A DNA stretch of 27,695 nucleotides, from the IMG/VR virus record IMGVR_UViG_3300045988_163776, positions 128,001 through 155,695 of that record. One strand, 5' to 3'. The notes under the pieces were generated by a model. It was not told the DNA's origin. It saw nothing but the letters and a program-made list of their open reading frames with translations, and did not search any database. The DNA comes from a virus. Positions 1-14,480 of the stretch are shown one piece after another. Position 1 is the stretch's first letter. Each line of letters opens with the position of its first letter. Position numbers and translations under genes: made by a program.

Positions 1-1
1 C

Positions 2-127
2 AATGTTGTATTTTGCTATGAAGAAATAATTAGCAAGCTTGGTGAAGCTGGATATCGCATGGGTTGGGATTTTACTGATAAAGCCATTGATAATGGAACT
101 TGGTTTTTGTCAATCCATTGGGACTAA
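2..127 (+). CDS. 3' end of an upstream gene (partial; ...DNGTWFLSIHWD-stop)
   Basis: Frame 2 is open from the window edge to TAA 125-127. The stop lies just before the AAGGAGG RBS (132-138) of the next gene. Confidence 0.4.
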   Translation, partial: NVVFCYEEIISKLGEAGYRMGWDFTDKAIDNGTWFLSIHWD

Positions 128-146
128 TATAAAGGAGGGTTGCGCA

Positions 147-857
147 ATGGCAGTAGCAAAAAGCTTTAAAAATTTTGAAATGTTAAGTGAACCATTTGAG
201 AAAAATAATAAGATGTATGTTATTGTGCGAAACCCTAAAACCCAACATGAACGTACCGTAAGATGGTATACAAGTAAAGAGTATGCTAAGCTCTATCCAG
301 AAGAACAACCAATCACACAAGATTGGAAAAATTTAAAGAATTGTCTTGGTTTTAATAAAGGATATATTACAATATTTAAAAATGCAAGTTATGATGATGA
401 ATGGTGTAATATATCAAATGCGCGTTGGCATGAACGTTGGGGCTGGTATATTGCTTCTACAGAAGAAGTACCCGCAGACTGTCCTTTTGAATATGCTCCC
501 TTGTATTGGACTGATATCTCAAAAAGCGAAGGAGCGTTAAAACCAAAAGAGGAGATTGAACAAATTATTTTTTCAATATTTTATGATAATTCTCCATCTC
601 AATATTTAGGTAATATAGGAGATAGAATTGAGCTGGAAGCTGAAATTATAAGTATTGAGAAAGTAGAAACTGCATATGGGGTAAAAGCAAAATATACTCT
701 TTGTGATGAGAAAGGAAATATGCTAGAATGGTTTACTGGAGTAAGAAAAGACTGGTTTAGAGGTAATAAGAAGAATCTTCGAGGCACAGTAAAAGAATTA
801 AAAAGGAAATATGGAATTAACACAACAGTTTTAACAAGATGTTTAGAAAGGAGATGA
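147..857 (+). CDS. hypothetical phage protein (236 aa, starts MAVAKSFKNF)
   Basis: Long ORF. ATG 147 sits 8 nt after AAGGAGG. The ORF-track start at 39 would overlap the upstream gene and has no RBS. TGA stop. Confidence 0.75.
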   Translation: MAVAKSFKNFEMLSEPFEKNNKMYVIVRNPKTQHERTVRWYTSKEYAKLYPEEQPITQDWKNLKNCLGFNKGYITIFKNASYDDEWCNISNARWHERWGWYIASTEEVPADCPFEYAPLYWTDISKSEGALKPKEEIEQIIFSIFYDNSPSQYLGNIGDRIELEAEIISIEKVETAYGVKAKYTLCDEKGNMLEWFTGVRKDWFRGNKKNLRGTVKELKRKYGINTTVLTRCLERR

Positions 858-863
858 GGTAAT

Positions 864-1022
864 GTGATCGAAATAATTACATTTATAATTTGGATAATCA
901 TAGGCGTATCAAATTTTTTCTTTTGTCTTGCTGGCTTAGCGCCAACTTGGATAACATTTTGGAGCGCTTATGGTTGCGTAATTATTAGTTTACTCGAAAA
1001 ATATATTAATAATAAAAAATAA
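864..1022 (+). CDS. small hydrophobic (membrane) protein, 52 aa, GTG start
   Basis: GTG 864 lies about 10 nt after AAAGGAG. The translation VIEIITFIIWIIIGVSNFFFCLAGLAPTWITFWSAYGCVIISLL is two hydrophobic segments. TAA stop. Confidence 0.45.
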   Translation: MIEIITFIIWIIIGVSNFFFCLAGLAPTWITFWSAYGCVIISLLEKYINNKK

Positions 1023-1051
1023 TTGATATTTTATAAAAAATATTATATAAT
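1023..1051 (+). promoter_or_regulatory. sigmaA-type promoter TTGATA-N17-TATAAT
   Basis: Spacing counted by hand. Followed by the family box ATATATATAATAAAAG. Confidence 0.7.
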
Positions 1052-1091
1052 ATATATATAATAAAAGAAGTTGAAAAGAGGTTGATTTAAA

Positions 1092-2735
1092 ATGTCATTG
1101 ATGAATATGATTAGTAAAGAGGAACAAGAGTTAATTTCAGCTTATAGAGAAGCTTATATAGGAAGTCATACAGAATCACTTTGTGATAATGAATATCTAT
1201 TAAGAGTATGGCAAGAAGAAAAATCTAAATTCCTTGCTAAAATTTTTAAAGATAGCCTAATTCTTAAAAAAGAAGTTGTAGTTAAGTTACCACATGAAAT
1301 GATCGCCGTAGAAATGGATGGAAAATTATGTTATTATCCTCGTAGAGATGGTTATGTGGATCCTGGAACTCCAAAAGGCTTTATAAGACAGCTAATGAAC
1401 TTAGTCGATGAATTATGTGAAAAAGATTGTATTGATTGGGCTTTAAGAAATGCCATGCGTAACATAAATGGAGATCTTTTAGCAGACAATAGATTTATTG
1501 ATAGATGGGATCCAGATCATAAAAGAAATTTTAAAGTGACTCATCCTTCAGATAAAAGAAAAAGTTTCACTATTTCTTATGGAATGAAATTAATGAAAGT
1601 ATATAATAAATTTGCTACTGCTTTTGGCATTGCAGGTTTTGATGAATATGCAGTCGTTCATTCTCAAATTTTAAATACGACTAATCTTAAAGGAACGCTA
1701 TGCTTGTCAATACATCCTTTAGATTATATGACAATGAGTGATAACAACTCAAATTGGACTTCTTGTATGTCTTGGGAAGGTGACGGCGAGTATAGACAAG
1801 GCACTGTAGAAATGATGAACTCTGATTGTATTGTTGTAGGTTACCTTGAGTCTTCAGCTCCTATGAATATATTAGGAGCAAAATGGAATAACAAAAAATA
1901 TCGTAGTTTATACTGCGTTAATGAAGATGTTATAGCCAATATAAAAGGTTACCCTTATAAAAGCTTAGAGATTGATAAAATAGTTATTGATTGGCTAAAA
2001 GAATTAGTTGAAGCCAATACAGATATCAAATATGAGAGTGATATTATAGATTTTAATAGTGACGAAAATGATTATTATTTAGATTTTCATACTCATATTA
2101 TGTATAATGACTGCTGGAATACAAAAGGCTGTAGAACATGTCATATAGGCTATGTAAGCAATTTAGCATCACATAATTGTTATGTTCATTATTCTGGACC
2201 TGATGAATGCATGTGTTGTGGAGCAGTTGGAGTTATGGAAGAGTGCAGTGAAAGTGATTTGGTTTGCGATTCCTGTGATGGCTATGAGTATTGCGATCAT
2301 TGTGGAGATAGATGCAACTTTGGTGAAACTCATCATATTGATGGATATTCTCTTTGCAGTTACTGCTATGATGAAGCTGTTGCGCAAGACTTCTTTGATG
2401 AAACAGAGCATTTAGAAAATAATATGGTACAAGCAAAAATTAATGTTGACGCTGAAAGCGGAATGTTCATTCGCTCACATTCTGTTTATAGTATTTTTAT
2501 TGATATAAAAAATATAGAAAAATTTATCTCTGTATGCCCTAAAATTTTTAAAGAAGAAAAAATGTCTTCTTATAAGATCTTTTCTGAAGAAAGTTTTTAT
2601 TATGAAGGGAAAATAATAGAGATTAACTGGAATGACCTTTCTGATTATGGTTGGAAATTTTTCTTTAAAGAAAATGATGCGATGATTGAATCAGTTAAAT
2701 TATTCTGTAAACGTTATGAAGAAGCTAAAATTTGA
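1092..2735 (+). CDS. large Cys-rich protein, paralog of 5291-6667; conserved HPLD/W-SC/GEYR core plus C-terminal CxxC zinc-ribbon cluster (possibly PcfJ-like, unverified)
   Basis: 547-aa ORF behind promoter 1023-1051 and an AAGAGG RBS. Shares the motifs LS(I/V)HPLD(Y/F), NW(T/R)SC, GEYR-G and WNNKK(Y/W)R with ORF 5291. The C-terminus has at least 6 CxxC pairs. Confidence 0.85.
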   Translation: MSLMNMISKEEQELISAYREAYIGSHTESLCDNEYLLRVWQEEKSKFLAKIFKDSLILKKEVVVKLPHEMIAVEMDGKLCYYPRRDGYVDPGTPKGFIRQLMNLVDELCEKDCIDWALRNAMRNINGDLLADNRFIDRWDPDHKRNFKVTHPSDKRKSFTISYGMKLMKVYNKFATAFGIAGFDEYAVVHSQILNTTNLKGTLCLSIHPLDYMTMSDNNSNWTSCMSWEGDGEYRQGTVEMMNSDCIVVGYLESSAPMNILGAKWNNKKYRSLYCVNEDVIANIKGYPYKSLEIDKIVIDWLKELVEANTDIKYESDIIDFNSDENDYYLDFHTHIMYNDCWNTKGCRTCHIGYVSNLASHNCYVHYSGPDECMCCGAVGVMEECSESDLVCDSCDGYEYCDHCGDRCNFGETHHIDGYSLCSYCYDEAVAQDFFDETEHLENNMVQAKINVDAESGMFIRSHSVYSIFIDIKNIEKFISVCPKIFKEEKMSSYKIFSEESFYYEGKIIEINWNDLSDYGWKFFFKENDAMIESVKLFCKRYEEAKI

Positions 2736-2759
2736 AAAAGTTAAAAAAATAATGTATAA
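2731..2759 (+). promoter_or_regulatory. sigmaA-type promoter TTGAAA-N17-TATAAT (TG-extended)
   Basis: The -35 overlaps the TGA stop of gene 1092-2735. The -10 reads ATGTATAAT. Confidence 0.65.
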
Positions 2760-13578: not shown

Positions 13579-13722
13579 ATGACAAAAGCAGAACTTAAAC
13601 TATTAAAACTTGAAAATCGTTATCGCCACATGGAAACAAGAGGAGGCTCAGAGGCTTCCAGTGGGGTAATGAGAAAAGTAGCAAGACAAATAAGAACTTT
13701 AAAAACTGATATTGAACATTAA
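13579..13722 (+). CDS. small protein (47 aa, MTKAELKLLKLENRYRHMETRGG...)
   Basis: ATG 13579 follows AAGAAAGAGG. Lies between tRNA-Phe and stem element E4. Confidence 0.45.
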   Translation: MTKAELKLLKLENRYRHMETRGGSEASSGVMRKVARQIRTLKTDIEH

Positions 13723-13732
13723 AAATGAAAAA

Positions 13733-13858
13733 AAGACACAAAAACTGCAATTAAGGAAAAAACTAGTATGTTAATGGTTCAAGTCCATTTATTACTTTAT
13801 TAGTAATATAGCTCAATTGGCAGAGCAATAGGTTGTGTATATAATTGTGTCTTGTAAT
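13733..13858 (+). ncRNA. bipartite long-range stem element E4, encloses a circularly permuted tRNA-like core (T arm, loop-closed acceptor stem, D arm); Y-RNA/YrlA-like topology
   Basis: The helix aagacaca/tgtgtctt pairs 13733-13740 with 13846-13853. Box AACTGCAATT. Core 13773-13826: aatgg-ttcaagt-ccatt, then tattact-ttatt-agtaata (perfect 7 bp), then ta, then gctc-aattggca-gagc. Confidence 0.5.
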
Positions 13859-13862
13859 ATGG

Positions 13863-13903
13863 AAGGGTGGTTGGTGGTAATAATGAGACGCCATTTCACC
13901 CTT
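13863..13903 (+). ncRNA. 41-nt acceptor-minihelix-like hairpin resembling a deleted tRNA-His copy
   Basis: The stem aagggtg/caccctt encloses ggtg-gtaataatgaga-cgcc. The 5' ttggtggtaataat and 3' catttcaccc segments resemble tRNA-His 13181-13255. Confidence 0.35.
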
Positions 13904-13931
13904 TACAATAAAAAAAGGAGCGATATTTAAT

Positions 13932-14129
13932 ATGAAAGGATATATATGTCCAATTTGTTTAAAAAAATTTGCTACTGAAAGTAGTATTAAAAAGCATAGT
14001 TTAAGCTGTTGGAAAGAATCACATCCTAATCATATAGTAAAACACGCTCCTCAATGTGAAACAAAAAATACAAAAAAGATAAATGATGATATATTAAGTT
14101 TCTTTAATTCTTTTAGTAAAGGAGGATAA
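13932..14129 (+). CDS. C2H2-type zinc-finger protein (65 aa)
   Basis: YICPICLKKFATESSIKKHSLSC fits CxxC...HxxxxC. AAAGGAG RBS. Confidence 0.7.
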   Translation: MKGYICPICLKKFATESSIKKHSLSCWKESHPNHIVKHAPQCETKNTKKINDDILSFFNSFSKGG

Positions 14130-14132
14130 GAT

Positions 14133-14480
14133 ATGATAGTTAAAATTAATACACACCCAATAGTAAAAGAAGTTCATGAAGAATATCATATGAATTGGTG
14201 TGGAAAAATTAAAAACACTTGTCCTAAAATTGTAAATGATAAACCTATATTTATTATAAGAAACTCTAAAAAGAGAATTGAACTTAATACAATAGATATG
14301 GATTTAATTGAAAGAGTAGCTAAGAAAATAACATCTCCTCAAGGAAGAAGTGCAGTAACTACAGATAAAGCTTATATATATCTTCAAGAGGAAAATGATA
14401 AAGAAACTTTAATGGGAATTCTTACACATAATCATATTAAAACTTATAATCAAATGTTTGATGAGTTTGAGTATGAATAA
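14133..14480 (+). CDS. hypothetical protein (115 aa)
   Basis: ORF with an AAAGGAGG RBS, translationally coupled to the upstream gene. Confidence 0.7.
   Translation: MIVKINTHPIVKEVHEEYHMNWCGKIKNTCPKIVNDKPIFIIRNSKKRIELNTIDMDLIERVAKKITSPQGRSAVTTDKAYIYLQEENDKETLMGILTHNHIKTYNQMFDEFEYE

Follow-up and report, generated by a model that had tools for sequence, protein, structure and literature searches.

A 27,695-nt stretch of viral DNA from a human gut metagenome (hereafter the window; positions 128,001 to 155,695 of IMG/VR record IMGVR_UViG_3300045988_163776), part of a ~155-kb tailed phage, combines long genes free of in-frame TAG, a block of genes that contain it, and a tRNA with the anticodon CUA that would read it. 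We propose, with a probability of about 0.6, that this is a partly code-15 phage whose TAG-free genes act before the suppressor tRNA is functional and whose TAG-containing genes are delayed.

We analyzed the window together with its flanks on the parent contig (ENA ERZ28573263 scaffold_68, 155,711 bp, where the window matches about 122341-150035 in reverse orientation), ~5.7 kb on the upstream side and 8 kb on the downstream side, 41.4 kb in all. The window DNA recurs, with 0 to 1 differences, in three or four human-gut assemblies made independently. All substantial open reading frames (ORFs) of the window lie on the + strand, its G+C content is ~31% (range 0.27-0.37 throughout), and GC skew is positive everywhere. 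Megablast against GenBank phages gave no nucleotide-level match to the window, and because protein matches there reach only ~42% identity, the phage has no annotated close relative. We used the AAA ATPase at 11309-12400, which shares ~42% identity with Enterococcus phage ATPases, among others, to collect 51 related IMG/VR contigs (80-400 kb, ATPase identity 29-57%), and orthologues in these loci served as the conservation set. Most of the 51 carry tRNA arrays and many carry a tRNA(CUA). The host is probably a Bacillota species, given the SLH domains and the presence of the same tRNA type in Bacillota metagenome-assembled genomes (MAGs). The 41 kb contain no capsid, portal, terminase, polymerase or lysin gene.

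In-frame TAG and its reading as glutamine

ORFs were called with TAA and TGA as the sole stops, which makes the calls blind to TAG, and in-frame and off-frame TAG were then counted. Ten ORFs within 147-14480, totaling 2,353 codons, had no in-frame TAG (147-857, 1092-2735, 2793-3224, 3381-4193, 4257-5294, 6690-7001, 8514-9014, 11309-12400, 13932-14129 and 14133-14480, all on the + strand). Adding 5291-6667 (458 codons) gives eleven ORFs and ~2,811 codons without internal TAG, close to the roughly 12 larger ORFs and 2,800 codons of the initial annotation, which had also named the GIY-YIG endonuclease (TAG at 9528) and a small ORF (12812) as the only TAG-containing ORFs of this zone, with coordinates that agree with ours. 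Overall, 147-14480 contains 3 in-frame TAGs in 3,106 codons versus 37 in 3,546 for 15039-27525, a difference of ~10-fold (Fisher p = 1.6e-7). The difference was also seen for TAG relative to CAA+CAG (p = 2e-7) and for in-frame relative to off-frame TAG (p = 4e-6). Both zones have plenty of off-frame TAG (135 and 182 occurrences, respectively), so the shortage is frame-specific and not a general rarity of the trinucleotide in the DNA. At the TAG rate of 15039-27525, 2,353 TAG-free codons would be expected with P ~2e-11. Six-frame ORF length totals under alternative codes did not tell the codes apart, as dropping any stop codon inflates spurious ORFs.

A runs test on the presence or absence of TAG per gene, taken in gene order, was not significant (p = 0.25), so the contrast is one of TAG density and not a clean boundary. 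In the upstream flank, seven + strand genes are TAG-free, and three - strand genes, one of them for a second GIY-YIG endonuclease, each contain TAG. Selfish endonucleases had been expected to carry TAG, and all three homing endonucleases in the 41 kb do (1, 10 and 4 codons). Genes of two classes are interspersed in the genome, which does not divide into two halves; its bipartite look comes from where the window ends.

Translating TAG as sense merges fragments into proteins of 320, 810, 200, 309 and 389 aa. Family matches were found for the merged proteins, apart from the 810-aa one, and the ENA gene calls on the parent contig yield the same read-through products. In the C1 peptidase (23312-24241), a TAG aligned with the Gln just before the catalytic Cys of protease 3ois (VVD-TAG-G..C in the peptidase, VYDQG..C in 3ois), the residue that serves as oxyanion-hole Gln in papain. 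The GPQ/GIQ triplets of the collagen-like protein have TAG at their third position. For the endonuclease at 15039-16001, 120 listed homologues were aligned and 119 counted, the near-identical P0001 being excluded. Q made up 30% of pooled residues at the ten TAG columns, against a background of 4.3% and against 42% at the endonuclease's own CAA/CAG columns, with the caveat that some database homologues may come from recoded phages and have their TAG already translated as Q. It was the commonest residue at four of these columns, tied first at a fifth and second at a sixth. TAG 12812 aligned with Gln in two related loci, and at TAG 16025 relatives aligned Q six times and A five times.

We then compared in-frame stops across orthologues in the 51 related loci. 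Genes of the putative early zone had 0 to 0.6 in-frame stops per 1,000 aligned residues, with the exception of 3381-4193 (2 TAGs in 509 aligned residues); DUF2828 orthologues had 0 stops in 13,675 aligned residues and AAA ATPase orthologues 4 TAGs in 16,111. Endonuclease orthologues had 7 to 13 stops per 1,000 residues, C1 peptidase orthologues had 16, and orthologues of the GIY-YIG gene at 9492-10130 contained 23 in-frame TAGs over 13 related loci. Of the in-frame stops inside orthologues, 73/74 were TAG. Because the papain-type Gln, the collagen GPQ triplets, the endonuclease columns and this near-exclusive use of TAG all point the same way, the reassignment of TAG to Gln in part of the genome, which had been suggested at the outset, is well supported by the alignments and by the full-length products.

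Gene 5291-6667 has its sole TAG at 6665-6667, and the next in-frame stop, TAA at 6698-6700, follows 11 codons on (GAA GAA GAG GAG GAA GAA TAT TAT GGC GGC TAA). The read-through tail, QEEEEEEYYGG, overlaps the ribosome-binding site and the start codon (6690) of the next gene. Orthologues in relatives L050 (…CDRIIGEDEEAS*) and L013 run past the last Cys motif into acidic tails without a stop there; judging by them, the 11-codon read-through form may therefore be the ancestral C-terminus, and the TAG form would drop the tail only. The ENA gene caller reports a 469-aa read-through product for gene 5291 on the parent contig. The earlier view that this gene uses TAG as its terminator holds insofar as the TAG is present at 6665, but it need not be a dedicated stop, with orthologues continuing past the site. 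An early stop at this position would cost a short acidic tail, which would be tolerable in a gene needed under both codes. TAG terminates at most 1 of the ~24 TAG-free genes, and this rarity fits a genome where TAG is an undependable terminator. The TAGs previously noted at 17637, 23263 and 26340 are also present, lying 13, 5 and 10 codons ahead of TAA/TGA; these three near-end TAGs in the recoded block are close to the ~2 expected by chance at the local TAG density.

The features discussed here are listed below in window coordinates; the last three lie on the parent contig past the window.

147..7001, + strand: seven consecutive standard-code-compatible genes, no internal TAG except 6665
4257-5294, + strand: M28-like peptidase, phrog_34186
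7309..16974, + strand: 16 to 19 tRNA and tRNA-like genes among protein genes, ending with the suppressor (ARAGORN, Rfam)
8514..9014, + strand: 166-aa protein, TAG-free, phrog_6660, function unknown
9492..10130, + strand: GIY-YIG/NUMOD1 homing endonuclease; TAG 9528 is codon 13 and falls within the Pfam GIY-YIG match, which begins at residue 1
11200-11275, + strand: tRNA-Gln(UUG)
11309..12400, + strand: AAA ATPase, TAG-free, phrog_2376, E = 2e-99
12719..12937, + strand: 72-aa small ORF, TAG at 12812
13932..14480, + strand: two TAG-free small genes, 13932-14129 (zinc-finger-like) and 14133-14480
15039..16001, + strand: homing endonuclease, phrog_374/559; 10 in-frame TAGs, the densest in the window
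15998-16411, + strand: small gene, TAG 16025 is codon 10
16390-16671, + strand: small gene, no TAG
16788..16816, + strand: sigma-70/sigma-A-type promoter-like site, by consensus match
16887..16974, + strand: amber suppressor tRNA(CUA), 88 nt
16975..17024, + strand: candidate theta ribozyme, a minimal type resembling that of hepatitis delta virus (HDV)
17089..17111, + strand: intrinsic-terminator-like hairpin
17304..27525, + strand: TAG-containing block, ~10 kb, with tail-fibre-like and cell-wall-binding genes
17304-17678, + strand: gene with 1 TAG
17694-18389, + strand: gene with 0 TAG
18449-20881, + strand: 810-aa protein, 9 TAG, no family match
20938-21540, + strand: collagen-like tail-fibre protein, 3 TAG
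21694/21800-22225, + strand: gene with 4 TAG, frameshifted at a G8 tract
22813-23280, + strand: gene with 1 TAG
23312-24241, + strand: Peptidase_C1 plus SLH, 5 TAG
24509-25759, + strand: radical SAM protein, 0 TAG
25725-26372, + strand: gene with 1 TAG
26356-27525, + strand: gene with 2 TAG
28146-29654: DUF2828 protein, TAG-free
29799-32555: SLH-domain protein, TAG-free
33193-35670: vault-like protein, TAG-free

Several of these genes have features of their own. The proteins of 1092-2735 and 5291-6667 are Cys-rich paralogues (phrog_18912, function unknown) with the common motif LCLS(I/V)HPLD…NW.SC and C-terminal CxxC repeats, and such pairs are present in relatives L013, L016 and L034 too. ORF 21694 (N-terminus MAKIKKIKDNNGTTIYP…), paralogous to the N-terminus of gene 22813, enters an eight-G run (~21793-21800) and resumes in another frame as ORF 21800-22225. 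The G8 region is identical in the L001 copy from the 155-kb parent contig, and the break may reflect a frameshift, phase variation or a mistake in assembly. The DUF2828/DUF7788 protein (L055 13638-15146, window-equivalent 28146-29654) has orthologues in 27/51 related loci, and the 825-aa protein matching the major-vault-protein shoulder domain (L055 18685-21162, window-equivalent 33193-35670) has >6,000 homologues, many of them from gut contigs of 150-195 kb; a search with it retrieved a 98%-identical representative. Interspersed with the normal tRNAs are several tRNA-like sequences that are weak or irregular (7309-7472, 10296-10367, 11037-11109 and 13082-13353): they include low scorers in Rfam, sequences whose anticodon loops are odd, and a 93-nt 'tRNA-Pro'. 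Decay of tRNA copies or a non-canonical tRNA type may account for them.

The suppressor tRNA and its surroundings

The initial annotation had presumed a suppressor in the phage, and a tRNA(CUA) was located at 16887-16974, scoring 57.7 bits against the Rfam tRNA model. Its acceptor stem (UGGGGAU/AUCCCCA, U1-A72, G73) resembles that of the window's tRNA-Gln(UUG), and its 19-nt variable region (~16930-16948) folds into a hairpin, GC-UUCUGAG-GC, with a loop that reproduces the anticodon loop of a tRNA-Gln (CUG). The Gln-type acceptor would keep the tRNA glutamine-specific, and we propose that the extra arm contributes. E. coli supE tRNA-Gln(CUA) is a 75-nt class I tRNA with a Gln-type acceptor end (weak 1-72 pair, G73); the phage tRNA shares this acceptor type and the CUA anticodon, and differs in its 19-nt variable region with a second anticodon-like hairpin. 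The length of the tRNA suggested a class II Ser, Leu or Tyr suppressor. This was rejected on the Gln-type acceptor, the Gln alignments and the 7-nt arm loop, set against the 3-4 nt usual in class II variable-arm loops and the acceptor identity rules for Leu, Ser and Tyr.

We next surveyed this arm in other tRNAs. Long-arm CUA tRNAs of relatives have quite different acceptor stems and carry the loops CUCUGAA, UUCUGAG and CUCUGAC; one relative has CUUUGAA, which holds UUG, also a Gln anticodon. CUA tRNAs with Gln-like arms were found in L006, L028, L030, L037, L039, L045, L047, L049 and many loci from L061 to L343. An IMG/VR scan blind to arm sequence yielded 8 long-arm CUA tRNAs, with a YYCUGAR loop in 8/8. 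Directed IMG/VR scans recovered CUA with a Gln-like arm at 98 loci (68 unique tRNAs) and UCA with a Trp-like arm at 34 loci (25 unique tRNAs); for the crossed pairs, the same scans gave 0 suppressor tRNAs with CUA and a Trp-like arm and 0 with UCA and a Gln-like arm. The Trp-like arm has a CUCCAAA loop on a 4-6 bp stem and goes with a Trp-type acceptor (AGGGGCU…G73, A1-U72). Acceptor ends agree with the arm, with a weak 1-72 pair and G73 for Gln and A1-U72 and G73 for Trp. Arm-stem covariation was 0.59 versus 0.16 shuffled for the Gln arm and 1.00 versus 0.20 shuffled for the Trp arm, with 0/500 shuffles as high in each case. In 596 Gb of bacterial and archaeal genomes, we found 11 Gln-arm CUA tRNAs, all on MAG contigs, at least 7 of which are named Bacillota, Bacilli, Acutalibacteraceae, Erysipelotrichaceae, Oscillospiraceae or Faecalibacterium.

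The existence of the arm and its amino-acid specificity are close to certain. The literature that we searched contained no description of such suppressor arms, and an earlier description elsewhere is possible. Tentatively, the arm may be a decoy identity element that keeps synthetase recognition after the anticodon has changed to a stop-reading one, with GlnRS, or a non-discriminating GluRS together with GatCAB, as its partner, and TrpRS in the case of opal suppressors.

The suppressor tRNA is preceded, ~70 nt upstream, by a near-consensus promoter-like site at 16788-16816 (TTGAAA, 17 nt, TATAAT, TG-extended) and followed at 17089-17111 by a terminator-like hairpin of 9 bp, 5 of them G-C, and then a T run. 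From this arrangement we infer that 16788-17111 may constitute a compact autonomous switch unit of promoter, leader, tRNA(CUA), theta-like candidate and terminator, which would sit ~200 nt upstream of position 17304, where the recoded block starts. A leader hairpin at 16829-16878 was considered and dropped as not significant.

The tRNA has no encoded CCA; its discriminator G73 is at 16973 and G1 of the ribozyme candidate at 16975. Theta ribozymes, described by Kienbeck et al. (PMC10879173), are minimal HDV-like ribozymes that adjoin phage tRNAs at their 3' end. The candidate comprises P1 (GUCAUC/GAUGAU), J1/2 (AA), P2 (GUAGAA/UUCUAC), P3 (GCC/GGC), L3 (UUUACGU) and J4/2 (CUAA). Compared by eye and segment-wise with theta-0001, the most frequent of the published theta ribozymes, it shares J1/2 AA, L3 U-NN-ACGU, J4/2 CUAA (which opens with the catalytic C) and the helix order, and like theta ribozymes it is placed directly after a CCA-less tRNA, here the tRNA(CUA), with the cleavage site <=5 nt from the tRNA 3' end. 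In contrast to theta-0001, its P1.1 would be a U-A pair plus a mismatch where theta-0001 has two G-C pairs, and its P1 has 6 bp instead of 7 bp. P1.1 is weak (L3 UU versus AU, one A-U pair at best). A descriptor search for nested double-pseudoknot P1, P2 and P3 in HDV order from G1 matched at 16975-17024; the descriptor itself is weak, with 2 matches in 109 sequences tested and ~1.3 expected by chance. The Rfam CPEB3_ribozyme model scored the candidate at 15.7 bits (E = 0.36; threshold 35), and neither the window sequence nor its L3 variant had a match in the portion of the published theta-ribozyme tables compared. We regard 16975-17024 as a candidate theta ribozyme, whose self-cleavage would make the tRNA 3' end available to CCA addition. 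A G+C-rich stretch at 17112-17215 containing CUCCUCGCG was evaluated as a second HDV-like element and rejected (shuffle z = 0.08, no Rfam match).

A short motif, GTCTTG, recurs near the tRNAs. KYGTCTTG occurs 7 times in the window versus 1.7 expected, and at 16872, 13168, 13849 and 7770 GTCTTG is found 9-13 nt upstream of the point where a tRNA or tRNA-like sequence begins. It is also present at the parent-contig equivalent of 27752 (L055) and upstream of suppressor tRNAs in L006, L013, L021, L022, L040, L047 and L049, often followed in relatives by (G)ATAT. The motif could be a tRNA-specific processing or promoter signal; a hammerhead was also considered.

Proposed timing of expression and alternative explanations

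Many genes contain no TAG and are therefore correctly translatable by an uninfected standard-code host. In the proposed mechanism, these would be the genes required before the suppressor works, and TAG-containing genes would give truncated products until it is functional, so that the delay would fall on virion and lysis-associated proteins and on the selfish endonucleases. Given a consensus host-type promoter and what appears to be an autonomous unit, any delay would come from accumulation or maturation of the tRNA and not from late transcription. Promoter-like sequences were compared between the zones. Ten + strand intergenic sigma-A-like sites score >=11/12, nine of them from -2396 to 16788 and one at 27542; they precede TAG-free genes and tRNA clusters, with sites at 1023, 2732 and 3340 among TAG-free genes, and the gaps of the recoded block have none at this score (~1.5 expected).

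Several observations weigh against this explanation. The promoter contrast between the zones is suggestive only and not significant alone, and an extended -10 element (TTGATATAAT) lies upstream of recoded gene 20938. The early/late timing is plausible, with the classes drawn only from gene content and promoter-like sites, and most TAG-free genes have no assigned function. The sequence examined covers 27% of the genome, and in these 41 kb we saw no release-factor gene or release-factor inhibitor. Three TAG-free genes fall in the TAG-rich zone: 16390-16671, 17694-18389 (231 codons; chance of no TAG, P = 0.05) and the radical SAM gene 24509-25759 (416 codons, P = 0.004). Past the window, three large genes at 28146-35670, 2,245 codons in all, have no TAG, and the one with an SLH domain, downstream of the block, could be a virion or late protein. 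Of the sharp bipartite pattern originally described, the strong density contrast stands; the sharpness does not, as TAG-free genes occur in and after the block. Finally, the radical SAM gene has 0 TAG in the window and 7 in its L035 orthologue, so recoding status drifts between relatives.

Suppression might instead be effectively constitutive, with TAG drifting (e.g., CAG-to-TAG) into fast-evolving or dispensable genes and no timing involved. From the near-consensus host-type promoter, the suppressor could be made from the start of infection, and several TAG-rich genes (18449, 20938, 21800, 22813, 25707 and 26356) have no detectable orthologues in the 51 related loci. The runs test and the variable recoding of relatives, for which Table 2 of Babkin et al. 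(PMC10607447) offers a parallel to the radical SAM gene, favor the same view. Zero TAG in 2,353 + 2,245 codons of long genes, however, is too strict for drift alone (P ~2e-11). Poorly conserved genes of 147-14480 with few or no orthologues are TAG-free as well, and the sole TAG in a large gene of that zone falls 11 codons short of the end, as if premature termination were selected against. We consider drift without timing unlikely, though a serious contender.

A mosaic origin, with the recoded block and the endonucleases acquired from other code-15 phages and a standard-code ancestor for the remaining genome, appears improbable. The mobility of homing endonucleases, the common exchange of tail-fibre modules and the lack of orthologues of the recoded block in the fetched related loci would all suit such an origin. 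It is countered by the continuity of G+C (0.27-0.37) and GC skew across the boundary, by TAG in small genes of the TAG-free zone that have orthologues in relatives (12719-12937 and 15998-16411), and by the carriage of tRNA(CUA) across the clade, in many of the 51 related loci. An artefact, be it a standard code with many pseudogenes or a chimeric assembly, has the metagenomic origin as its sole point and is effectively refuted by the near-identical independent assemblies, the alignment of TAG columns with Gln, the 73/74 TAG among in-frame stops of relatives and the presence of the cognate tRNA(CUA).

Relation to known recoded phages

An early/late code-switch model, including gating of homing endonucleases, has been put forward as a hypothesis by Borges et al. 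(bioRxiv 10.1101/2021.08.26.457843), who described partial, block-wise recoding affecting 26-71% of genes by clade, with early genes in standard code, structural and lysis genes and homing endonucleases preferentially recoded, and code-change units adjoining recoded modules. The same themes run through Yutin et al. (PMC7886860), Pfennig et al. (Mgcod, bioRxiv 10.1101/2022.06.29.495998) and Babkin et al., and translation of TAG as Gln is reported to have been confirmed by metaproteomics (Peters et al., PMC9523058). The present phage resembles the crAss-like, Lak and 'gemstone' code-15 phages in reading TAG as Gln, encoding a tRNA(CUA), being partially recoded, having a recoded endonuclease and placing a putative code-change unit beside the recoded module; recoded here are a collagen-like tail-fibre protein, a C1 peptidase with SLH and the 810-aa protein without a family match. 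Unlike them, it is not close to any GenBank phage, shows neither a release-factor nor an aminoacyl-tRNA synthetase gene in the 41 kb, and probably has a Bacillota host. As in Mgcod dual-code genomes, code 11-compatible stretches alternate with stretches needing code 15, but, unlike the Mgcod blocks, those of this phage are interrupted: the code-11 zone includes single TAG-containing endonucleases and small ORFs, and the code-15 block includes genes free of TAG. The proposed Phassvirus, with phAss-1, comprises 133-138 kb gut phages with big tRNA sets, a tRNA-Sup-CTA and ~28% of ORFs recoded (PMC10607447). Our phage is likewise a large gut phage with a big tRNA set, a CUA suppressor and recoding that varies between close relatives; in contrast, no nucleotide similarity to phAss-1 was detected.

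Since the partition has already been published for other phages, the observation correctly identifies a known phenomenon, here in a new, unclassified phage. It contributes a further example, in a phage probably infecting Bacillota, and its value is mainly for annotation: standard-code gene calling fragments the 810-aa, 320-aa and 309-aa proteins (L002 versus L001 calls). The finding also bears on how and when the code changes, through a suppressor unit that appears autonomous, the avoidance of TAG as a terminator, and the near-harmless position of the one TAG in a large putative early gene, where truncation would cost little. What most deserves following up is the tRNA's second, cognate-anticodon-like arm. 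If it does act as a decoy, it would represent a natural solution to changing an anticodon without losing a synthetase that reads it, which is a problem in code engineering.

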